NCBI GenBank assembly: GCA_913057675.1
Contig: CAJXOL010000002.1
Coordinates: forward strand, 1-54,283
From: an uncultured Pseudomonadota bacterium
GTDB taxonomy: Bacteria > Pseudomonadota > Gammaproteobacteria > Burkholderiales > Eutrophovitaceae
Reading direction: 5' to 3'
Length of the DNA stretch: 54,283 nucleotides
The translations under genes and the position numbers were made by a program. This document shows positions 8,552-34,103 of this stretch, one piece after another; position 1 is the first letter of the stretch; every line of letters begins with the position of its first letter. A model generated the notes under the pieces. The model was not told the origin of the DNA. It did no database searches and saw only the letters and a list, made by a program, of their open reading frames with translations.

Positions 8552-9385
8552 TTATAGTTTTGACCAAACTCTCCACGCAATCCATAATTTTTGAATTGGT
8601 GTCAACGTTTGGCGCCTGATGAATGAGCGAGAAGGATTGGATGCGATTTTTTGGAGAAGTTTGCGATAAATAGCACTCATGATTAATCCAGCTTTTTGAA
8701 GCTGCCTATCATCTCTGTGCAAATTTGAATGGGCGACATCGAAAAGATCGATAGCAATTTTGACTTGATTTTTGACTAAAGTATCGAAAGATTTTGTTCC
8801 CACGGCACTTAGAATTGTTTCTCTGCTAAGTCCTACGTGTTGCAGCTCTTCAAGTGGTATGTATATCCTGCCACGAGTTAAATCCTCGTTGATGTCTCTC
8901 AAAATATTTGTTAACTGCAGAGCGAGCCCTAACTGCTCAGCATAGATAAGTGTGCTCGGGTGGGAATAGCCAAAAATATTTGCCGAGAGTATACCAACGG
9001 CGCTTGCGGATCGATAACAGTAATGTGTGAGCTGCTCTTTAGTCTCGTATTGCGTTTTATCAAGATCCATCAACATCCCTTCGATAATGAGCTCGAAGTA
9101 TTTCTTCTCCAATTTGTATGGCTCAATAAAGGGAAAGAGTGCTCGCGTGACAGGATGTTGGGGCGATCCTGCCCACATGTTGTTTAGTTCATGGTTCCAC
9201 CAACCTAACTTTGCTCTCGCAACCTGTTCATCGGAGGGTTCATCCACTACGTCGTCAACCTCTCGGCAAAACGCATATAAAGCAGTAATGGCCTCACGTT
9301 TATTTTTTTCAAGAAATAAGAAGCTGTAGTAAAAACTTGATCCGCTTTGTATGGTTTTTTGGGCGCAGTACTCTTGTGGCGTCAT
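8552..9385 (-). CDS. hpnD: Presqualene diphosphate synthase
   Basis: It belongs to the squalene/phytoene synthase family and has both Asp-rich motifs (REVDDVVDE; LRDINEDLTRGRIYIP). It occupies the hpnC-D-E gene order. Confidence 0.85.
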   Translation of the reverse strand: MTPQEYCAQKTIQSGSSFYYSFLFLEKNKREAITALYAFCREVDDVVDEPSDEQVARAKLGWWNHELNNMWAGSPQHPVTRALFPFIEPYKLEKKYFELIIEGMLMDLDKTQYETKEQLTHYCYRSASAVGILSANIFGYSHPSTLIYAEQLGLALQLTNILRDINEDLTRGRIYIPLEELQHVGLSRETILSAVGTKSFDTLVKNQVKIAIDLFDVAHSNLHRDDRQLQKAGLIMSAIYRKLLQKIASNPSRSFIRRQTLTPIQKLWIAWRVWSKL

Positions 9386-10266
9386 TATTTGTGAAAAACC
9401 GTTTGGAGAAGAATGGATACGAAGTCAAATGAGTTGATTTTATGGTTTGTAGCGAAAACATTGCCTCGAGAAGCAGAGAGCTTTCTCGTCACTTGCAAAC
9501 CCGATTTAACGATTGATTTTATTTCGATACCAATTCTGCCAGGAAGTATCTCGTAGAGTTCGGCGCCATCAAGGAGGTATTGATGTGCGCGTTTAATTTG
9601 AAATTCCATAAGATTGAGCCAGCTCAAATCAAACACTTCATTTTTAATGTGGTCCTCAGTGACGCCAAAAGAGATCATCTCGTCTTGAGGGAGGTAGATT
9701 CTTCCTAATTCATAGTCCTCAGAGATATCTTGAAGAAAATTAATGATTTGCAGGCTGGTGCAAATAGAATCTGACCATTTGAGATGGTCGTCGTGAGTAT
9801 AGCCAAACAAGTGCAGCAGAATACGTCCGATTGGGTTAGCTGATCTGTCACAATATAACTTAAGCTGTGTGAAGTTTTCGTATCGTTTGATGGTGAGGTC
9901 CTGCTCAAAAGCATCTAGCAATTGGAAAAATAGGGTAATGGGCAGGTTATGTTGAGCGATCAACGTGCCGAGCTCAGAGAAAAATGTTGTGAGTGGTGGT
10001 TGGTTGCATTGGATTTTCTTCAATTCCTCTCGGAAAAATTCCAAACGCTCTTGTTTAAAGGTGGCGGGTAGTTCGCCGGAGTCAGCGATATCATCTGCTG
10101 ATCGCGCAAAGTTATATATTGTCTCGATTGGGGCCCTTAAATGTTTGGGCAATACTATCGAGGCGATGGGAAAGTTTTCGTAGTGATCAACGGGCAAAGC
10201 GCGATATCCATTAAGTAAAACATGTCTATGGTAATTGAGTGATCGAAAAATTTCACGCTCAAACAA
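9385..10266 (-). CDS. hpnC: Hydroxysqualene synthase
   Basis: It has squalene/phytoene synthase family motifs (VDHYENFPIAS; ARSADDIADSG; LQDISEDYELGRIYLP). The track's ATG at 10329 lies inside tRNA-Leu. I prefer the in-frame TTG at 10266, but the start remains uncertain. Confidence 0.78.
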   Translation of the reverse strand: MFEREIFRSLNYHRHVLLNGYRALPVDHYENFPIASIVLPKHLRAPIETIYNFARSADDIADSGELPATFKQERLEFFREELKKIQCNQPPLTTFFSELGTLIAQHNLPITLFFQLLDAFEQDLTIKRYENFTQLKLYCDRSANPIGRILLHLFGYTHDDHLKWSDSICTSLQIINFLQDISEDYELGRIYLPQDEMISFGVTEDHIKNEVFDLSWLNLMEFQIKRAHQYLLDGAELYEILPGRIGIEIKSIVKSGLQVTRKLSASRGNVFATNHKINSFDFVSILLQTVFHK

Positions 10267-10301
10267 CCGGGATATGTGGATTATAGTAGAATGCGGTGTA
10301 T

Positions 10302-10386
10302 GCGAATGTGGCGGAATTGGTAGACGCACCAGATTTAGGTTCTGGCGCCGAGAGGCGTGAGAGTTCGAGTCTCTCCTTTCGCACCA
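10302..10386 (+). tRNA. tRNA-Leu (anticodon TAG)
   Basis: An 85-nt cloverleaf can be folded by hand. It has acceptor GCGAATG/CTTTCGC with one mismatch, anticodon loop TTTAGGT, a long variable arm, T-loop GTTCGAGTC and an encoded CCA. Confidence 0.92.
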
Positions 10387-10482
10387 AATTTATGTAGTAG
10401 TTCGAGGCGCTAGCTGCGCTGTTTTAACGTAACCGCTCTCTACTCGAGTGAGCGTCTACGCACATTTTTTTTTGGGAATAGT

Positions 10483-11790
10483 ATGGACTCAACGCTTGAG
10501 ACGATCAGCAACTTAGAAAGAAAAATGTCAATTTCAGTGCCAATGGCTGAGATTAACAGTGAGATAATTTCGCGGATAGGCAAGTTATCCAAGACCGTAA
10601 AAGTCGCTGGCTTTAGGCCTGGGAAGGTTCCAGTGAAGATTGTTGAGCAGCAACATGGAAGCCAAGTGCGTAGTGAGGTGATGAGTGACGTTATTGGTAA
10701 GAATTTTGGAGAGGCTTTAGAACAGAAAGAATTGAGGATAGCAGGGCTTCCTAAAATTGATGTCCAAGCGAAGGAAGAGAAAGACGAAAACTTTGTTTTT
10801 ACAGCTACATTCGAGGTTTATCCCTCAGTCGAAATCAAGGACATTGCGAACTGCTCAATTGATAAGCCAACCGTTAAGGTTGGAGATGCTGAAGTTGATT
10901 CAACACTCGGCATCATGCAAAAACAAAGAGCTAACTTTGTGATTAGTGACAAAGCAGCAGAGATTGGCGACCAAGTGAAATTAGATTTTAAAGGCTCTGT
11001 TGACGGTGAGTTCTTTGAAGGGGGCACAGGTGAGGGTGTAGTGATGTCCCTCGGAGAAGGTCGATTAGTAGCTGATTTTGAAAATGCGTTGACGGGATTG
11101 AAAGCTGCCGATGAGAAGTCCTTTGATGTTCAATTTCCCGATGACTATCCTGGAAAGGATTTAGCGGGTAAGAAAGCACAGTTCGAAGTTAAGGTCCACG
11201 AGGTTTTGGGTCCCGTTTTGCCTGAGGTTAATGCAGATTTTGCTAAAGAACTTGGTTTTGAGGATGGTGACGTAGTCAAGCTTCGTGGTGATGTTAAGAA
11301 AAACGTGGATTCTGAGGTTGCTAAGCGACTGGAGTCGCGCCAAAAGGATTTCGTCATGAAGACGTTGCTTGATCAGGCGGAGTTTGATGTGCCTAAAGCT
11401 TTAATCGGTGAAGAGGGGCAGAGGCTTTCTGATCAAATGAAGCAGAATATGGAATCGCGTGGAGTGAAAGTTGGAGACGTTACTCTTCCACAAGAAATGT
11501 TCGCGGAAGAGGCCACGCGTCGCGTCAAGCTGGGTTTAATCATTGCGCACATAGCAGAGAAAAATGAATTGCAACCGAAGCCTGATCAACTCAAAGAAGT
11601 GGTTGAGGAAATGGCGAATGGATATGAAAAACCTCAAGAAGTTCGAGATTGGTACTACAAAAACCCGCAACGATTGAGAGAGATAGAATCGTTCGTGGTT
11701 GAAAAGAATGTGGTGTCTTGGGCGTTAGAAAAAGCGCAAATAACGGAAGTTGAGTTAAGCTTTAACGAACTCATGGGAATAGATAAATGA
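10483..11790 (+). CDS. tig: Trigger factor
   Basis: The 435-aa product contains GFRPGKVP and an FKBP-type central domain. It sits upstream of clpP-clpX-lon. Confidence 0.95.
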
Positions 11791-12410
11791 TTATAAACGG
11801 TAGTGATTACCCAGCACCATCTGCACTTGGAATGGTGCCGATGGTCATTGAGCAAAGTGGCCGAGGAGAGAGGGCCTATGATATTTACTCGCGTCTATTA
11901 AAAGAGCGAGTGATCTTTTTGGTGGGCCCGGTAAATGAGTTAACTGCTAACTTGGTGGTTGCACAGCTTTTGTTTTTGGAGTCTGAGAATCCTGATAAGG
12001 ACATTTCTCTATATATCAACTCGCCCGGGGGGGTCGTTTCGGCAGGCATGGCCATTTACGACACGATGCAGTTTATCAAGCCCGATGTAAGCACGTTGTG
12101 CATTGGTCAGGCAGCGAGTATGGGAGCATTCTTGCTTACAGCTGGTCAAAAAGGTAAACGATTCGTGCTTCCTAACTCGCGTGTGATGATTCATCAGCCA
12201 CTTGGTGGTTTCCAAGGACAAGCGTCTGATATTGAAATTCACGCAAAAGAGATTCTTTATCTGAAAGATCGTTTGAATCGCTTGTTGTCCGACCATACTG
12301 GGCAGTCCATTGAGTCGATCAAAAATGATACCGATCGAGATAATTTTCTCGGAGCCGAAGAAGCGGTCACGTACGGTTTAGTTGATGAGGTGCTGTCTAA
12401 AAGAATTTAG
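11787..12410 (+). CDS. clpP: ATP-dependent Clp protease proteolytic subunit
   Basis: The product contains [29 protein letters not shown], active-site GQAASMGA, and the IHQPLGG motif. Its start overlaps the tig stop (ATGA). Confidence 0.95.
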
Positions 12411-12482
12411 AACTTGATGCGTTTAATCGGGTCTATCGTTTTCTTAGAAATATTTAAATACGAAAAAATAAAATAGTGTTTC

Positions 12483-13766
12483 ATGACTGAAAATAACGAC
12501 AGCAATACAGAAAAGCTTCTTTACTGTTCTTTTTGTGGCAAGAGTCAACAAGAGGTGAAGAAGTTAATAGCAGGGCCCTCTGTGTTCATCTGTGATGAAT
12601 GCATAGAGCTGTGTAACGATATAATTATAGAAGAAGCTCTGGCTGAGACAGGGGTCGATGATAAGACATCGTCATTACCTGTTCCCAAGAAAATTAGGGA
12701 GAGTCTTGACGACTACGTTATTGGGCAGGAGTTAGCGAAACGTATTTTATCAGTTGCAGTCTATAACCACTATCGACGTTTGCATGAGACCACCAACGAC
12801 GACGTTGAGTTGTCCAAATCCAATATTTTGTTAGTCGGTCCGACTGGTTCAGGAAAAACATTACTTGCTCAAACGCTTGCGCGTTTGTTAAATGTTCCAT
12901 TTGTGATGGCCGATGCTACGACCCTTACCGAAGCAGGGTATGTAGGGGAGGATGTCGAAAACATCATACAAAAGCTCTTGCAGAAATGTGACTATGACGT
13001 TGACCGTGCTCAGCGAGGTATAGTTTACATAGATGAAATTGATAAGGTGTCGCGAAAAACGGATAATCCATCCATTACCCGAGATGTTTCCGGGGAGGGT
13101 GTCCAACAAGCGCTGTTGAAGCTTATTGAGGGGACGATTGCATCCGTGCCACCGCAGGGGGGGCGCAAACATCCAAACCAAGAGTTCGTCCAAGTCGACA
13201 CCAGTAATATTTTGTTTATTTGTGGCGGAGCTTTTGATGGGCTAGAAAAAATTATACGTGATCGCTCAGATAAAAGCGGTATTGGTTTCGGTGCTGAGGT
13301 TAAGCCTAAGAACGCCGCACGAGATCTTGGTGACGTGTTGAAGAGTGTCGAACCGGGGGATCTTATTAAGTTCGGATTGATTCCTGAGTTTGTCGGAAGG
13401 TTACCTGTGTTGGCAACTTTGGAGGAATTGGATGAAAATGCATTGATCCAAATCCTAACTGAGCCTAAAAATTCATTGCTCAAACAGTACAAAAAAATGT
13501 TTGCGATGGAGGGGGCTGACTTAGATATTAGATCTGATGCGCTTTCCGTGATAGCTCGCAAGTCAGTTCAACGAAAAACGGGCGCACGCGGCCTGAGGTC
13601 TATCATTGAGAGCGTGCTGCTTGATGTGATGTATGAACTTCCATCATTAAAAAATGTTGAGAAGGTTGTTGTTGACGGAAGCACTGTGTCGGAAGGAACG
13701 AAGCCACTTTTGATTTACTCGGATCAAGATAGTACGTCTTCTCACTCTCTAGCATCAAACGCATAA
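12483..13766 (+). CDS. clpX: ATP-dependent Clp protease ATP-binding subunit ClpX
   Basis: It has the N-terminal zinc finger CSFCGKSQ...CDECIELC, Walker A GPTGSGKT and the IYIDEIDK motif. Confidence 0.97.
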
Positions 13767-26276: not shown

Positions 26277-26933
26277 TTATGGCTGATTTTTTATTTTTTT
26301 GGTCAAATCTACGCTGATGCTATGCTTGAGCAATATACTCAGTGTTGGGTTTCTTGTAAGCAATTTCTCTAAAGACTGTCGATCCCATGTGATTACTTGT
26401 GTTCGTGTGCGTGTGATTGTTGTGGCAGACGCGCTGCTGTTATTGACAAGAGACATTTCCCCAATGAAGTTGCCATCAGAGATTTTAGCAATTTCGTGAG
26501 TATTTTTCATGATGGAAACTGTGCCATTTTGAATGAAATATAGTTTTTTAGGGACTTCATTCTGCGTTGTAAGTGTGATGTTTTTGTCTACGGTTTCCCA
26601 TTGACCTGAGCGCATTAGTTTCGCAAACTCAACCCGGTTGAAATTTGAAAAACTGGTATCTAACATTTCGAGTTCGATATCACTTAATGAGATTTTAGAT
26701 TGTTCCGTATACATTTGGTACACGCGCCATACGTTAATGAGTGCAAACACTATGCACCAGGACAGAGGTAGCCAATCTGGAGACCCCATCGGGTGAAAGT
26801 AATTGTAAATGATGGCCCCGCAAGAACTAAATATCGCAAGAATTCTTAGTGCGACAATATCCTTGACGGCAAATGAGAGTGCAGTCAGAAAGAATGCCAG
26901 ATGTCCGACGATGGAGACAAGGGATAGTGACAT
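26277..26933 (-). CDS. Small membrane protein: three TM helices plus a C-terminal CAP-fold cyclic-nucleotide-binding-like domain (Popeye/POPDC-like architecture)
   Basis: Three hydrophobic helices lie in residues ~5-75. They are followed by LYFIQNGTVSIMKN...DGNFIGEMSLV...ASATTIT, a cNMP-binding beta-barrel in which the canonical phosphate-binding Arg is replaced. Confidence 0.7.
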   Translation of the reverse strand: MSLSLVSIVGHLAFFLTALSFAVKDIVALRILAIFSSCGAIIYNYFHPMGSPDWLPLSWCIVFALINVWRVYQMYTEQSKISLSDIELEMLDTSFSNFNRVEFAKLMRSGQWETVDKNITLTTQNEVPKKLYFIQNGTVSIMKNTHEIAKISDGNFIGEMSLVNNSSASATTITRTRTQVITWDRQSLEKLLTRNPTLSILLKHSISVDLTKKIKNQP

Positions 26934-29148: not shown

Positions 29149-29958
29149 TCAAAGGTGAGAGTACATTTTGGAGACAATACTTCTACCCTCGCTCGTTTCT
29201 CTCAAAAGTAAAATTTCTTCACCTACGTCAGGATATAAACGTTCCCAAAAATATTGGACCCATTTGCCTCGAAATTCAGCAAGATTTTTAAATATTGATT
29301 TGTCTATTAAGTCGGCTTCTTTCGCTGATAAATAGAACTCTACCATTTTGCGTTGATAGTTTTGATCTGACATCAGAGTTATAACCTGAATGGCTCGAAC
29401 GTATTTAGCTGTGTCGCTCACATCTTTGTCGTCTGTTCTGATTGTTGCCTTTTGCGCAAAGAAATCCGAGTAATCGATGGCGCGACTAACCTCCTTAAAA
29501 TTCGTATTTGTATCCAAAAAAGATACGTCTTGAATGAATTTTTTACTTCGGAATGCTTTGTACTCCCACATCGCTGAATCGGTGAAATCAGTATCTACGA
29601 ACTGAGGTTTTTGATCATTTAATTTTTGGAGGTCACCTTCATCTTCGTCTAGAACTCCCTTAAGAATACCGACGTTACAGAAGAGTACAGATGCCATGAG
29701 ATTTATTATTTGCTCCGGCATGATCAGGCCATCTCGACATCGCATCGCGTTTAGAAGGTGTAATCCGATGATTGATGTGGAAAGTGTGTGACCTAATGAA
29801 AAATAGAGGCTATTTGACTTAGCGAATCTGGTGAATGAGATCAACGCCATATTTTTGATTATGTCTGATGCCCTCATCACATCGGAATCTTGATGCTCAA
29901 TCGACTCAGAGAGAACTTTCTCGAATTCATGCCTTGCAATTCGTGTGAAATTAATCAT
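29149..29958 (-). CDS. Catalytically degenerate paralog of the HD domain of the upstream HD-GAF protein
   Basis: A hand alignment to residues ~45-270 of the 453-aa neighbour shows shared blocks (LY....H, LLF..(I/V)G, D.A..V......D..Y......FY, P(N/D)VG....L..T.EG(K/R)S.VS). The HD metal motifs YHDIEH and FHDIGY are replaced by YFSLGH and FCNVGI. Its start overlaps the upstream stop (ATGA). Confidence 0.7.
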   Translation of the reverse strand: MINFTRIARHEFEKVLSESIEHQDSDVMRASDIIKNMALISFTRFAKSNSLYFSLGHTLSTSIIGLHLLNAMRCRDGLIMPEQIINLMASVLFCNVGILKGVLDEDEGDLQKLNDQKPQFVDTDFTDSAMWEYKAFRSKKFIQDVSFLDTNTNFKEVSRAIDYSDFFAQKATIRTDDKDVSDTAKYVRAIQVITLMSDQNYQRKMVEFYLSAKEADLIDKSIFKNLAEFRGKWVQYFWERLYPDVGEEILLLRETSEGRSIVSKMYSHL

Positions 29959-31316
29959 ATTCGATGAGTCCCTTCCTCAAAGCCTTTGCTGATGTAACTA
30001 CTAACGTTTTTTAGCAACTCTAATACCGAGGGGTCCAGGGTTTCAGGTTCTGGACTAAAAAATTCCAGCACCCACCTGACACCCAAGCCATCATTTAAGG
30101 GGAATGAAAAGGCGCCACGAACCCCGATATCATTCGCTAACTTAGCGCGCGGAAAGTTAGGGTCTAGTGTAACGTCATAAATTGTTTGTACTGCTCCCGT
30201 TTCACACACTCTGCCAGGAAGGCCTTCGCCACTTTTGAAAATATAGCTCTCGCTAATAGCCTTGAATTGTTCAGTTGAGTCATCTTCTGCCGGTGCATGC
30301 CATATTTTCATTGATTTGAGGAATGACTGATCATTATTACGCTGCACGAGGTATGCGTGGCCAAGTGGCCAATCTTTGTAGTTACAAACTTTTTCTAAAA
30401 TGAGGCGAATTAAATCTTCAACCTTATAATTTCTAGCGGTTATTTTTGTGATTTCACTTAATAGCTCGATGCCGCTTTTCTCGAGCTCAGCTTTGTGGCT
30501 TTGTGAGAAGACGTGATAATTTAAGCTAGAAACCCAAGACTTACCTTCGTCAGTTACTTGTAAATACTTAAGGGCAGAACCGACATTTGGTCTAACGAAA
30601 TTGATAAAAAAGCTTGGGTAGCCAGCGCGAAGGTCGGCTGGTGTGTTGTATCCCATTTTGGTCGCTGATCCAGTTTCGTTAAATTCGTAAAACAACCTAG
30701 GTATTTTTACGTCATACATTGGGTCGGCTAGTTGTCCTATTAAATCCGCTGAGCCCACTAAGCTTGCCAGATCCCGAAATTTTACTTCTTCTTGTGTATT
30801 CGCCTCGCCACGGTTAGGTATCGGAAACTGAGTGTAACTAATGAGATCACACAGTAGTTCTCGGTCAACGTCTTGATGCCAGTTTCTCTGGTTTATGAAA
30901 AGTTTTCCGCGCTCAACGTGATACGGCGTTAGAGATGCATCAGTATCACCTTCTTGCAACTCATGGAGTGCTCCGCTCTTATCAATTAGCTGACCTTTAA
31001 CGCCATCACCAACAAGTATATTTCTAACGTATCCGATGTCATGAAAGAGAAGCGCGAGAGTGAAGTGAAGCCAGTCGGCTGAGTTAAGTTCGCCTTCTAG
31101 GATTTTTTTTCCGGCAAAAATCTCCTGGCCGCACAACGTTACCATGCACGTATGTTCGATGTCATGGTATAGAGCGTCAGATCCGCTGATGAGGTTCATC
31201 GAAGTATGAACCGCATCAGCTACGATGTTTAAATATTCTGGTGGGCTTTGAGGAAGTATTTCTTTTCTTTTTTGCTCTAACCTTTGAATGAAATCAATTT
31301 TTATGTTTTTGAGCAT
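29955..31316 (-). CDS. HD-domain phosphohydrolase fused to a C-terminal GAF domain
   Basis: The N-terminal part has the HD motifs LYHDIEH and LLFHDIGY. The C-terminal ~150 aa look like a GAF domain (GEGLPGRVCETGAVQTIYDVTLDPNFPRAKLANDIGVRGAFSFPL). Confidence 0.8.
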   Translation of the reverse strand: MLKNIKIDFIQRLEQKRKEILPQSPPEYLNIVADAVHTSMNLISGSDALYHDIEHTCMVTLCGQEIFAGKKILEGELNSADWLHFTLALLFHDIGYVRNILVGDGVKGQLIDKSGALHELQEGDTDASLTPYHVERGKLFINQRNWHQDVDRELLCDLISYTQFPIPNRGEANTQEEVKFRDLASLVGSADLIGQLADPMYDVKIPRLFYEFNETGSATKMGYNTPADLRAGYPSFFINFVRPNVGSALKYLQVTDEGKSWVSSLNYHVFSQSHKAELEKSGIELLSEITKITARNYKVEDLIRLILEKVCNYKDWPLGHAYLVQRNNDQSFLKSMKIWHAPAEDDSTEQFKAISESYIFKSGEGLPGRVCETGAVQTIYDVTLDPNFPRAKLANDIGVRGAFSFPLNDGLGVRWVLEFFSPEPETLDPSVLELLKNVSSYISKGFEEGTHRI

Positions 31317-31467
31317 TTTTTAGTTTGATTTTTATATAGGATCGTAATTTCTTATACCACTTCGACGACAAACGATCAAATGATTGCATGGCGCACTCCA
31401 TGATCATTATTTAGTGGGTCGGTAACCTATTCGCTTGATTAAGGGCTGGTACTTGACGGCATCTCGA

Positions 31468-32286
31468 TTATTCAGATAATTGCAGGTCTACAAGTTTTGG
31501 TAGCCCGAAAGAATGGGCCGCAGGCGTTGAGAACTTGGCGATATTAGCTAAAAAATATTTTCGCCCACCTGGTGACATTACACCCTCGGCGGACATTGGG
31601 TCTAATTTTCTCCACTCATTTGCCAGGCTCATAGTTAATTTTTTTTGAAATTGGGGTAGAGAGCTGGCAAGAATATCAGCTTCTTGACAAATAACTGCCT
31701 GCCAAACGGGCTTTTTTAAATCAAAACCATCGGTGGATTTGGCGCCATTATGTAATCGTGCATACAGTGTTGGGTCGGTACTCCAAATGATGCATTTAAT
31801 GGCGTATATATCACGCTCATCGCAATTAGCAGCTTCTAATAGAGGTTGTATTAATCGGAATGATCGAGATTCTAGTTGACACACATGGGCATTTCGACTG
31901 CCATTGTGCCCTGCATCATGTCCTGCCATCGCAACAAGAACAAGTATCTCTTCTCTAGTAATATTGTTTGAGTTTTTTTTGTTTAGTCTGCGTTGCTCTA
32001 ATAAAAGTGCCGTGAGACTCCTGATGACAACTGCTGTGTGTAGTCGCGAATGATAATTGGGTTCTTTTCCACTTCTAGCCATTTTCTTGCAAGAGTGTTC
32101 AATAAAATTTGCGACAGCTAATCCAGCAGTTATTAAGTTCGATTTTCTGCTTGCGTCAGCATCATCGTCGTTAATTTGACCTAAATTTTGGACGCATGAC
32201 TCAAAAACTTGCCGAACGCTGGTCCAATTGTCAGACCATTTGGAGTTTAATTCGTTTATCTGATCAATCAGTAATGGTAGCGTCAT
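31468..32286 (-). CDS. Compact class-I (PDEase_I-like) cyclic-nucleotide phosphodiesterase homolog
   Basis: The order and spacing of motifs mirror the eukaryotic PDE catalytic core. YHSRLHTAVV corresponds to YHNxxHAxDV. AGHDAGHNGSRN corresponds to HDxxHPGxxN. LESRS corresponds to LENHH. WSTD corresponds to LATD. EADILASS corresponds to CADLSNP. Confidence 0.68.
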   Translation of the reverse strand: MTLPLLIDQINELNSKWSDNWTSVRQVFESCVQNLGQINDDDADASRKSNLITAGLAVANFIEHSCKKMARSGKEPNYHSRLHTAVVIRSLTALLLEQRRLNKKNSNNITREEILVLVAMAGHDAGHNGSRNAHVCQLESRSFRLIQPLLEAANCDERDIYAIKCIIWSTDPTLYARLHNGAKSTDGFDLKKPVWQAVICQEADILASSLPQFQKKLTMSLANEWRKLDPMSAEGVMSPGGRKYFLANIAKFSTPAAHSFGLPKLVDLQLSE

Positions 32287-32472: not shown

Positions 32473-33867
32473 ATGATTCGTACTCGTTTCGCGCCCAGTC
32501 CGACTGGATATTTACATATTGGGGGTGCCCGCACAGCGCTTTATGCTTGGGCCTATGCAAGGAAGCATGGAGGCCAGTTTATATTGCGTGTTGAGGATAC
32601 CGATCAGGAAAGATCTTCCCAGGCTTCTGTGCAAGCAATACTTGATTCGATGACTTGGTTGGGCCTCGACTGGGATGAGGGGCCGATTTTTCAAATGGAT
32701 CGACTTTCACGTTATCGAGAAGTTGCCGATATGTTAATTGCATCTAGAAATGCTTACTGGTGTTATGCAACTCCTGAGGAGTTGACGGTGATGCGTGAAA
32801 CGCAGCGAAAATCCGGTTTGAAGCCACGATATGATGGTCGATGGCGTCCGGATAATGCTGTAGGTCAAGTGCCACCTGAAGGCGTGGCGCCAGTACTGCG
32901 GTTTAAAAATCCAGATGCTGGAGATGTCTCATGGAACGATCTGGTGAAGGGCATCATTACAGTATCAAATGCGGAACTCGATGATTTTGTTTTGCTTCGC
33001 GGGGATGGAACGCCTACCTATAATTTTGGAGTCGTTGTAGATGATCATGATATGAATCTCACTCACGTTATACGAGGCGATGATCATGTGAACAACACGC
33101 CCAGACAAATTAATGTTTATCGAGCGTTGAATTTTAAATTACCTGATTTTGGGCACGTCCCTATGATTCTAGGTGATGATGGTGAGCGTTTATCCAAGCG
33201 GCATGGTGCGGTCAGTGTGATGCAGTACAGAGATGACGGCTTTTTGCCGGATGCCGTTTTGAATTACTTAGCACGCTTAGGGTGGTCCCACGGGGATGAC
33301 GAGATATTCACGCGAGAGCAGTTTGTGGAGTGGTTTGATCTTGATCACGTTAATCGGTCTCCTGCTAAATTTGATGGTACAAAACTCAGTTGGACAAATG
33401 GCGAGCACATCAAGTTGTCGGATGACACGTTTTTAGCCGATCTTATTCGAGCAAACTATAATAAAAAGACCATCAATTGGCAAAACGGTCCAGAGTTGTC
33501 TGAATTAATTAAGTTATTGAAAGATCGAGCAACATCGCTTAATGATCTGTCTGATTCGGCCTTAATGTATTTTCGAGACATTCAGATTAGTCAGGAAGAT
33601 CGACTACAGTTTTTAACTGTAGATAAAAAGCCGATCTTAATTCACTTTACGGAATCGTTACGATCGGTCGAATGGGAGCGCCAACAAATCGCCAGCTGTA
33701 TTAAGTTTAGTTTAAAAGAGTTCCAACTTAAGATGCCCCAGTTGGCTATGCCATTGAGGCTTTTGTTGACTGGACAAACTCAAACGCCAGCCATTGACGC
33801 CATCATTGAATTATTGGGTCGTGATAGGGCGTTAGCTCGATTAGATGCTGGTTTGTCTGAGCTTTAG
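32473..33867 (+). CDS. gltX: Glutamate--tRNA ligase
   Basis: It has the class I aaRS motifs: HIGG (RFAPSPTGYLHIGGARTA) and KLSKR-type (RLSKRHG). The length is 464 aa. Confidence 0.96.
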   Translation: MIRTRFAPSPTGYLHIGGARTALYAWAYARKHGGQFILRVEDTDQERSSQASVQAILDSMTWLGLDWDEGPIFQMDRLSRYREVADMLIASRNAYWCYATPEELTVMRETQRKSGLKPRYDGRWRPDNAVGQVPPEGVAPVLRFKNPDAGDVSWNDLVKGIITVSNAELDDFVLLRGDGTPTYNFGVVVDDHDMNLTHVIRGDDHVNNTPRQINVYRALNFKLPDFGHVPMILGDDGERLSKRHGAVSVMQYRDDGFLPDAVLNYLARLGWSHGDDEIFTREQFVEWFDLDHVNRSPAKFDGTKLSWTNGEHIKLSDDTFLADLIRANYNKKTINWQNGPELSELIKLLKDRATSLNDLSDSALMYFRDIQISQEDRLQFLTVDKKPILIHFTESLRSVEWERQQIASCIKFSLKEFQLKMPQLAMPLRLLLTGQTQTPAIDAIIELLGRDRALARLDAGLSEL

Positions 33868-33930: not shown

Positions 33931-34006
<76 letters not shown>

Positions 34007-34027
34007 AGCACAGCGAAGACGAATTAA

Positions 34028-34103
34028 GACCCCATCGTCTAGAGGCCTAGGACACTGCCCTTTCACGGCGGCGACAGGGGTTCGAATCCCCTTGGGGTCG
34101 CCA
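34028..34103 (+). tRNA. tRNA-Glu (anticodon TTC)
   Basis: The 76-nt sequence is nearly identical in pattern to E. coli tRNA-Glu (..CGTCTAGAGGCCTAGGACA..CCCTTTCACGG..GGGGTTCGAATCCCC..). The acceptor is GACCCCA/TGGGGTC. Confidence 0.95.

Follow-up and report, generated by a model that had tools for sequence, protein, structure and literature searches.

A predicted class-I-phosphodiesterase-like gene and a separate HD-GAF/degenerate-HD gene pair side by side in a bacterial contig

The DNA analysed here, referred to as the window, is a stretch of 54,283 nt from an uncultured Pseudomonadota bacterium (contig CAJXOL010000002.1 of assembly GCA_913057675.1), and all coordinates are positions in it. 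This study concerns three consecutive genes, g1, g2 and g3, all of which lie on the minus strand. The first, g1 (31468-32286), encodes a protein of 272 amino acids that is predicted to be a compact HD phosphodiesterase (PDE) resembling class I, on the basis of its open reading frame (ORF), the Pfam PDEase_I family, a profile of its own family and an AlphaFold2 (AF2) model compared by Foldseek. A spacer of 151 bp (31317-31467) separates it from g2 (29955-31316), whose 453-residue product joins an HD domain of the Npun_R2479 family (residues 8-274; 30495-31295) to a C-terminal GAF domain (residues 299-443; 29988-30422). The third gene, g3 (29149-29958), encodes a catalytically degenerate Npun_R2479 paralogue of 269 amino acids, and the g2 stop and the g3 start share an ATGA overlap (29955-29958), an arrangement that points to translational coupling. 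An initial annotation had joined the three genes into one candidate nucleotide-second-messenger module. Its layout is sound: the ORF listing returns three co-oriented minus-strand ORFs, the ATGA is seen in the sequence, and the features of g1, g2 and g3 are backed by homology and are not explained by chance motif matches. The module as such does not stand, since g1 and g2/g3 are two units that occur together only in one narrow lineage and not one conserved system.

The class-I-phosphodiesterase-like gene g1

The g1 protein carries the motifs Y78-H79...H83, H123-D124-x-x-H127...N132 and E202-x-D204, with the codons of H123-D124 at 31920-31915. These supply four putative metal ligands (H83, H123, D124 and D204) and, four residues upstream of the first ligand, a histidine (H79) as the putative general acid. 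Residues H79 through N132 align with the motifs of PDE8A and PDE4D; D204 was assigned by motif and fold analogy, not by residue-level superposition. Throughout 54 diverse members of the g1 family H79, H83, H123, D124, H127, E139 and D204 are invariant, and Y78, G129, N132 and T170 are nearly so. The invariant residues match the zinc site of PDE4B, which is described in a review as consisting of a His, a His-Asp pair and an Asp.

Sequence profiles place the family close to class I PDEs. The single g1 sequence matches Pfam PDEase_I (PF00233) with an E value of 5.5e-05 (23.4 bits), and the same model is matched by 48 of the 54 diverse family members (best E value 6.8e-13), several of which exceed its gathering score (P0298 with 38.1 bits, P0290 with 33.7 and P0265 with 32.4). 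A profile built from 16 g1 relatives (A1) finds 97 distinct sequences in the PDB at E <= 1, the best being PDE8A (4.2e-05); all 60 matches listed of the 97 are phosphodiesterases, nearly all of them named class I PDEs. The same profile retrieves 731 cluster representatives (50% identity) at E <= 1e-3 among 1.84 billion, 115 of them at <= 1e-30, and nearly all members of the family are stand-alone proteins of 260-300 amino acids.

The AF2 model of g1 is confident, with a predicted local distance difference test score (pLDDT) of 94.3 and a predicted template-modelling score (pTM) of 0.93, and it shows the all-helical fold of PDE catalytic domains. The top 44 Foldseek matches in the PDB are all class I PDE catalytic domains, including PDE1B, T. 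cruzi PDEC1, PDE3B, PDE10A and T. brucei PDEB, at query-normalized template-modelling scores (TMq) of 0.48-0.68; the first unrelated fold appears at an E value of 0.16. From the PROSITE-type signature H-D-[LIVMFY]-x-H-x-[AG]-x2-[NQ]-x-[LIVMFY] (PS00126) g1 departs at two positions. The protein reads H123-D-A-G-H-N-G-S-R-N-A-H134, in which H, D, H, G and N fit and positions 3 (A125) and 12 (H134) fail. In its C-terminal helix the family has a near-invariant R242-x-x-F245 (window ~31552-31563); class I PDEs have a Q-x-x-F glutamine switch in that C-terminal region.

At the level of profile and predicted fold, g1 is therefore class-I-PDE-like, a compact and distant outlying relative of class I PDEs, and the initial proposal that it mirrors the class I catalytic core is borne out by both lines. 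With the eukaryotic enzymes (PF00233; PDE1B, PDE8A, PDE10A, T. cruzi PDEC1) it has in common an all-helical fold, the motifs Y-H-x3-H and H-D-x2-H-x-G-x2-N, and the later Asp of E-x-D. Unlike them, it is bacterial and stand-alone, has no regulatory N-terminal domains, is ~60 residues shorter and has 14 predicted helices instead of the typical 16. Reviews place class I PDEs in eukaryotes, a usual statement to which a sizeable bacterial family of class I type runs counter. The family is also relevant to how the eukaryotic PDE domain arose, and for many environmental bacteria, in which the enzymes that terminate cyclic AMP (cAMP) and cyclic GMP (cGMP) signals are largely unknown, its members are specific candidates.

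The gene neighbourhoods of the family point in the same direction. Among 63 distant loci, in which the g1 homologue is 30-41% identical, a gene for a cyclic-nucleotide-binding (CNB) protein directly adjoins the g1 homologue in 42; it typically encodes a stand-alone domain of 116 amino acids and ends in a 4-bp overlap with the start of the g1-like gene. A class III cyclase is present in 25 of the 63 loci, and either a cyclase or a CNB gene in 53. When the g1 loci are grouped at 70% identity, 19 of the 29 resulting clusters still have a CNB gene or a cyclase adjacent. Pfam confirms the CNB domains, and the neighbours include CHASE2-cyclase, dCache-cyclase and cyclase-Sel1 proteins. In two loci (L006 and L007) a gene for a CNB protein of 400 amino acids begins 4-10 bp after the g1-like gene, and L006 also has a receiver-cyclase gene nearby. 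In P0265 (669 amino acids) Response_reg, Guanylate_cyc and a g1-like domain are joined in one chain. This context is strong guilt-by-association evidence for hydrolysis of cyclic nucleotides (cNMPs): the g1 family has its conserved partners among cNMP-binding proteins and class III cyclases and not among HD-GAF genes. The proximity to cyclases and CNB domains, together with a member fused to a cyclase, is a further likeness to class I PDEs.

A comparable fusion is CAPE of streptophytes (PMC8115329), a combined class III adenylyl cyclase and class I PDE. In CAPE the PDE is N-terminal. P0265 likewise links a g1-like PDE domain to a class III cyclase within a single polypeptide; it differs in being of bacterial type, in its receiver domain and in its order, cyclase then PDE, and g1 of the window is unfused.

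Two further observations concern the family. Across L107-L169, stand-alone CNB proteins of 115-134 amino acids are translationally coupled to g1-like PDE genes by a 4-bp overlap or a 0-5-bp gap (for example L108 1028-1378, L111 5567-5971 and L144 5603-5950), and a CHASE2-, dCache- or Sel1-linked class III cyclase often lies beside the CNB/g1-like pair, forming a compact sensor-PDE-cyclase operon. In P0331 (377 amino acids) a g1-like PDE domain is joined to a HECT ubiquitin-ligase domain, and this protein might represent an effector of eukaryote-like type, or the gene call might be chimeric.

The window has its own candidate cNMP receptor. The minus-strand gene at 26277-26933, initially described as encoding a cNMP-binding-like protein with three transmembrane segments, indeed encodes a Popeye-like membrane protein of 218 amino acids whose N-terminal part has three hydrophobic segments and whose cNMP-binding domain is C-terminal (Pfam cNMP_binding 1.8e-14, POPDC1-3 3.4e-11). 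PADLOC matches it, at the domain level only, to the CNB part of Pycsar/TIR effector models. The gene lies outside the g1 operon, and it keeps its place near g1 in all relatives with enough sequence, at 2.0-4.5 kb in L008, L009, L091, L094, L096, L098, L101 and L104-L106.

The HD-GAF gene and its degenerate partner

The initial description of g2 as an intact HD domain with a C-terminal GAF domain agrees with the profile searches. Residues 8-274 match NF045583, the NCBIfam model for Npun_R2479 family HD domain-containing metalloproteins, with an E value of 3.8e-78 over model positions 10-274 of 275, and the homologue clusters of both g2 and g3 carry a precomputed PF28239 assignment; both proteins score under the equivalog cut-off of NF045583 (400 bits). 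The conserved set of the family (NF045583/PF28239) reads Y-H-[DN]-x-H ... H-D ... H-x2-R ... D-x3-Q-x2-D, and in g2 the site is intact (Y50, H51, H55, H92, D93, H133, R136, D191, Q195 and D198, with the H92-D93 codons at 31043-31038). Typical members of the family are stand-alone proteins of ~280 amino acids; g2 adds a GAF domain and g3 is without the metal ligands.

The GAF assignment rests on both score and fold. GAF_2 (PF13185) covers residues 299-443 with 40.3 bits against a cut-off of 28.6 (4.5e-10), Foldseek returns GAF structures at target-normalized template-modelling scores (TMt) of about 0.7-0.8, and a GAF profile also matches GAF structures; with the full AF2 model of g2 (pLDDT 85), all of the 50 matches listed are GAF domains. 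The domain resembles Nlh2, fRMsr, PtsP, cAMP-bound Lcd1 and the GAFs of PDE2/5/6/10, and because these differ in ligand class, its ligand is not readable from the likeness. No contiguous NKFDE-like string was found on reading the g2 translation, no residue-level alignment to liganded GAFs having been made. Homologues of about 450 amino acids with the same architecture span 33-99% identity and derive for the most part from marine metagenomes; among those with a named source, the closest belong to metagenome-assembled genomes (MAGs) of Burkholderiales and Betaproteobacteria.

A likeness to the GAF-regulated animal enzymes PDE2/5/6/10/11 had been drawn in the initial annotation across the separate genes. 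If the analogy applies at all, it does so within g2, in which GAF and an HD-type phosphohydrolase domain share one chain and whose GAF has those of PDE2A, 5A, 6 and 10A among its fold matches. The order is inverted (HD then GAF), a single GAF replaces the tandem, and the catalytic domain is of the Npun_R2479 type and not PF00233; the likeness is one of logic only. Because the GAF shares its chain with an intact HD site, it most plausibly regulates that site and not g1.

The degenerate nature of g3, likewise claimed at the outset, is equally clear in the alignments. Residues 30-268 match NF045583 (2.3e-30), and BLASTP gives an end-to-end alignment of g3 and the HD domain of g2 (242 residues, 21% identity, E value 4e-14). 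Relative to g2, H51 is replaced by F, H92 by C, D93 by N and D191 by Q, the former His-Asp pair being C94-N95 in g3 (codons 29679-29674); of the conserved Npun_R2479 catalytic set only the Y, H55, R136 and D198 are kept. These replacements are themselves maintained. The 64 g3 orthologue clusters, mostly of 264-281 amino acids (about 13 are shorter fragments), reach down to 40% identity; C94 is near-invariant, Asn95 is found in nearly all (one has Asp), and the C-terminus and many other positions are conserved. On this sequence record g3 is a conserved pseudo-enzyme rather than a decaying gene. In other degenerate clades the HD dyad reads AH, FS, FG, FA, CF, VY, AT, IH or ID.

The pairing itself recurs widely. 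A degenerate paralogue follows the HD-GAF gene in 18 of 18 complete genes examined with enough downstream sequence; HD-GAF loci comprise the window, L001, L003, L010-L013, L026, L091, L094, L096-L099, L101, L105 and L106. By ORF coordinates the g2/g3 junction ranges from an overlap of about 8 bp to a gap of 10 bp, and the identities of g2 and g3 drop in step across loci. Seven further loci (L015, L016, L017, L019, L040, L049 and L057) combine a GAF-less active HD gene with a degenerate copy. In the second copies H92 is lost throughout, D93 is kept only in L057 and none has Asp at D191. All 15 degenerate copies adjoin an active copy, so that loss of the ligands, conservation and co-occurrence with an active enzyme come together as in a pseudo-enzyme partner. 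Among the remaining family members of the 80 genome loci the ligand set is complete in all but one (L052), where the loss is partial. In a neighbour-joining tree of the HD copies, 14 of the 15 dead copies fall on one side of the midpoint root; because long-branch attraction is possible in such a tree, we make no claim that the dead copies arose only once.

Degenerate regulators of signalling enzymes have precedents: the YN-GYP variant of HD-GYP (P. aeruginosa PA2572), the inactive hydrolase domain of RelA compared with SpoT, and the EAL/GGDEF-dead receptors LapD and FimX, which are degenerate paralogues acting as regulators. As in the YN-GYP, RelA and LapD cases, a dead copy of a hydrolase fold is maintained by selection beside active copies. 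Unlike in those cases, g3 is a separate, translationally coupled gene that always lies beside its active paralogue, and its regulatory role is putative. We regard it as probable that g2/g3 is a GAF-gated HD hydrolase with a pseudo-enzyme partner. The Npun_R2479 family is widespread, with at least 579 loci over Proteobacteria, Cyanobacteria, Chloroflexi and others, and an active enzyme with a dead twin, with or without a GAF domain, offers a clean and testable bacterial case of a pseudo-enzyme partner. Literature searches on Npun_R2479, bacterial class I PDEs, PDEase_I and HD-GAF pseudo-enzymes found no characterization, and the obligate, translationally coupled active/dead two-gene form within the Npun_R2479 family appears to be undescribed in the searchable literature.

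Several pairs lie near cNMP genes. In L001 a GAF-cyclase gene is found 1.2 kb upstream of the pair, in L015 CNB proteins flank the pair on both sides, in L010 a CNB protein of 128 amino acids is encoded 3.7 kb away, and in the window the neighbouring cNMP gene is g1 itself. These links are suggestive, and a cyclic nucleotide as the substrate of g2/g3 can be put forward only tentatively.

Some individual loci deserve separate mention. In L012 (12263-14251, plus strand) an ammonium-transporter/class III cyclase fusion lies 118 bp downstream of the dead HD gene on the same strand. In L052 (2542-6087) a class III cyclase gene lies between two divergently oriented Npun_R2479 HD genes, and one of the HD copies has D191 replaced by Val, possibly an intermediate stage of active/dead pairing. 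An encapsulin shell gene (Linocin_M18) adjoins the HD-GAF/dead-HD pair of L026 on the opposite strand (12207-13010, minus strand). In L009, a 162-kb ENA scaffold, the g2/g3 orthologues are distributed over five short ORFs in the same order (9074-11115) and the aldehyde dehydrogenase gene is also split; these splits are most likely assembly or frameshift errors, not real pseudogenization.

One module or two units

The gene-neighbourhood comparison gave a divided answer to the initial proposal: the g2/g3 adjacency recurs, the three-gene adjacency does not extend beyond the clade of the window. Every pair locus outside that clade (L001, L003, L010-L013 and L026) is without g1, and in L001, L003, L012, L013 and L026 there is no g1 homologue within 6-10 kb. 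L010 and L011, labelled as alphaproteobacterial MAGs, carry the pair at 75-77% (g2) and 70% (g3) identity and share no other gene with the window. Three loci have g1 followed directly by the DUF3429 gene, without the pair (L008 and L104 with g1 at 56-57% identity, L092 at 66%), and L008 also keeps gltX, the aldehyde dehydrogenase gene and the CNB gene in the same order. In clusters at 70% identity, an Npun_R2479 gene neighbours g1 in four of 29, all from the window's own clade, and the pair is found in none of 24 distant g1 clusters. As the cassette moves independently of g1 and is also absent from syntenic g1 relatives, the trio is lineage-specific, confined to loci whose g1 is at least 60% identical to that of the window. 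Three similar neighbouring genes can thus be two units of different history, which is a caution against reading function from adjacency.

On balance we favour the explanation that g1 is a cNMP phosphodiesterase, that g2/g3 is a separate cassette and that their juxtaposition is specific to one lineage. In this explanation g1 would be a compact, soluble bacterial enzyme related to the eukaryotic class I phosphodiesterases for 3',5'-cyclic nucleotides, and it most likely hydrolyses cAMP and/or cGMP at its His/His-Asp/Asp metal site with H79 as the proton donor. In the window's lineage it would probably reset a signal that is read by the nearby Popeye-like membrane protein, the cyclase for its messenger being placed outside the window. 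The g2/g3 pair would be a horizontally mobile, translationally coupled two-gene cassette, in which g2 acts as an HD phosphohydrolase that depends on metal and whose activity is probably controlled by a small-molecule ligand of the GAF domain on the same chain. Its non-catalytic partner would most likely be g3, in physical contact with g2 as the other subunit of a heterodimer, or else a ligand-binding decoy. As the substrate of the pair we would guess first at a nucleotide phosphodiester, which may be a cyclic nucleotide. The juxtaposition itself would have come about because the cassette was gained or lost at the site between g1 and the DUF3429 gene within a shallow clade of marine Burkholderiales-like bacteria. 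Neither unit is categorically new; both are uncharacterized, widespread and directly testable.

A bolder extension of this explanation is unlikely: the cassette would be an unrecognized heteromeric, ligand-gated nucleotide-messenger phosphodiesterase, its dead subunit binding the messenger or serving regulation, and would have been recruited beside g1 and the Popeye-like receptor into a multi-layered cNMP-degrading node.

Several findings weigh against the favoured explanation. For g1, the PDEase_I score is below the gathering score (23.4 against 24.8 bits), the match spans only profile positions 1-60, and an hhalign comparison of the g1 family with a PDE4D sequence aligned residues 74-135 only, so that the part of g1 corresponding to the purine-recognition pocket, with its glutamine switch and hydrophobic clamp, was not alignable. 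The CNB gene of the window is 4.5 kb from g1, with g2/g3 and two opposite-strand genes in between, and the local link between g1 and this CNB gene is accordingly drawn from lineage synteny alone. In agreement with the initial annotation, no class III cyclase was found among 44 selected ORFs of the window (at least 150 amino acids, plus one shorter) with an ad hoc profile. For the Npun_R2479 HD domain, the profile has no match in the PDB even at an E value of 10 (single-sequence PDB searches were uninformative), and literature searches returned no paper on the function of the family and no characterized relative, in line with the initial statement that no characterized system of this kind was known; indeed, profile and literature searches gave no characterized close relative for g1, g2 or g3. 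The same-strand neighbours of 57 Npun_R2479 genes are heterogeneous and without a dominant partner, and cNMP-related genes are near five of 15 pair loci compared with ten of 68 singleton loci, a difference that is not significant. Within the window's clade, finally, the trio is present in 15 of 16 informative loci with a g1 at least 60% identical to that of the window, which leaves room for the two units being functionally connected in this one lineage.

A specific kinship between the Npun_R2479 and PDE families was also considered. The Y-H-x3-H, H-D and A-D-[LI] motifs of Npun_R2479 line up with those of the g1/PDE family, but the hhalign probabilities, 15% against the g1 family (E value 0.0017) and a noise-level 0.8% against a PDE4D catalytic sequence, also tell against the favoured explanation and are too weak to claim such kinship.

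The rival that survives best, though we think it rather doubtful, takes g2/g3 out of second-messenger metabolism altogether: the HD phosphohydrolase would answer to a metabolite sensed by its GAF domain and could be a nucleotidase, could act on phosphonates or phosphoesters, or could carry out other HD chemistry. It fits the mostly metabolic or envelope-related neighbours of Npun_R2479 genes, among which GT4 glycosyltransferases are the most frequent (six of 57), followed by HlyD (four of 57), with NUDIX, thioredoxin and AIR synthase-like genes also present (compare L004). It also agrees with the non-cNMP binders fRMsr, PtsP and Nlh2 among the GAF fold matches and with the statistical weakness of the HD domain's similarity to PDEs. 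It fits less well with the Pfam assignments, in which PDEase_I is the best match for 13 of 24 Npun_R2479 members, albeit weakly (best E value 0.0017), and generic HD for three of 24, and with the alignment of the three motifs to those of the g1/PDE family. In the window, L001, L010, L012 and L015, moreover, a class III cyclase or CNB gene is found 0.1-4 kb from the pair, and the cyclase of L052 is flanked by two family members.

That g1, g2 and g3 form a single regulated hydrolase complex or pathway for one messenger, with the GAF domain of g2 and the g3 protein controlling g1, is improbable. The high frequency of the trio among close g1 relatives is accompanied by a spacer that stays at about 130-150 bp, the genes are co-oriented without a minus-strand terminator-like site between g1 and g2, and all three products are PDE-like HD proteins to some degree. 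Against this, the pair is never within 6-10 kb of g1 outside the shallow clade and is missing from the distant g1 clusters and from three loci of the same synteny (L008, L092 and L104); the GAF domain of g2 has a target in cis, the intact catalytic site of g2 itself; and the g1-g2 spacer lacks sequence conservation.

An anti-phage or conflict system, in which g2/g3 would supply an HD nuclease or signal-degrading effector with a GAF sensor, is very unlikely. HD domains act as effectors in several defence systems, and the cassette does occur in unrelated genomic contexts at high identity, yet no PADLOC model matches g1, g2 or g3, the flanks of the cassette are housekeeping genes and not defence islands, and flanking repeats and mobility genes are absent. 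The idea that g3 is a decaying duplicate without a function of its own, a pseudogene in the making, can practically be dismissed, since the loss of three of four canonical metal ligands and its faster evolution (45% identity against 60% for g2 in L001, 38% against 57% in L012) are outweighed by the mostly full-length orthologue clusters with their conserved C94/N95 replacement, by the constant position of g3-type copies beside an active copy in genomes labelled as Alpha-, Beta- and Gammaproteobacteria, and by the conserved start-stop coupling of g2 and g3.

Surroundings of the block

Base composition is flat over the g1-g3 block, without anomaly, and neither flanking repeats nor mobility genes mark an insertion at the cassette. 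The g1-g2 spacer is poorly conserved among the trio loci (alignment A7), except for an A-rich stretch before the g2 start. An Rfam search of the spacer for a riboswitch or regulatory element gave no match, and promoter-like matches between g1 and g2 are at chance level. The neighbouring genes are chromosomal housekeeping genes: gltX and genes for an aldehyde dehydrogenase, a DUF3429 protein, the photolyase-related DPRP and RNase T. The glutamyl-tRNA synthetase gene gltX occupies 32473-33867, and genes for tRNA-Ala(GGC) and tRNA-Glu(TTC) follow directly downstream (window 33931-34103), so that the synthetase adjoins its own tRNA.

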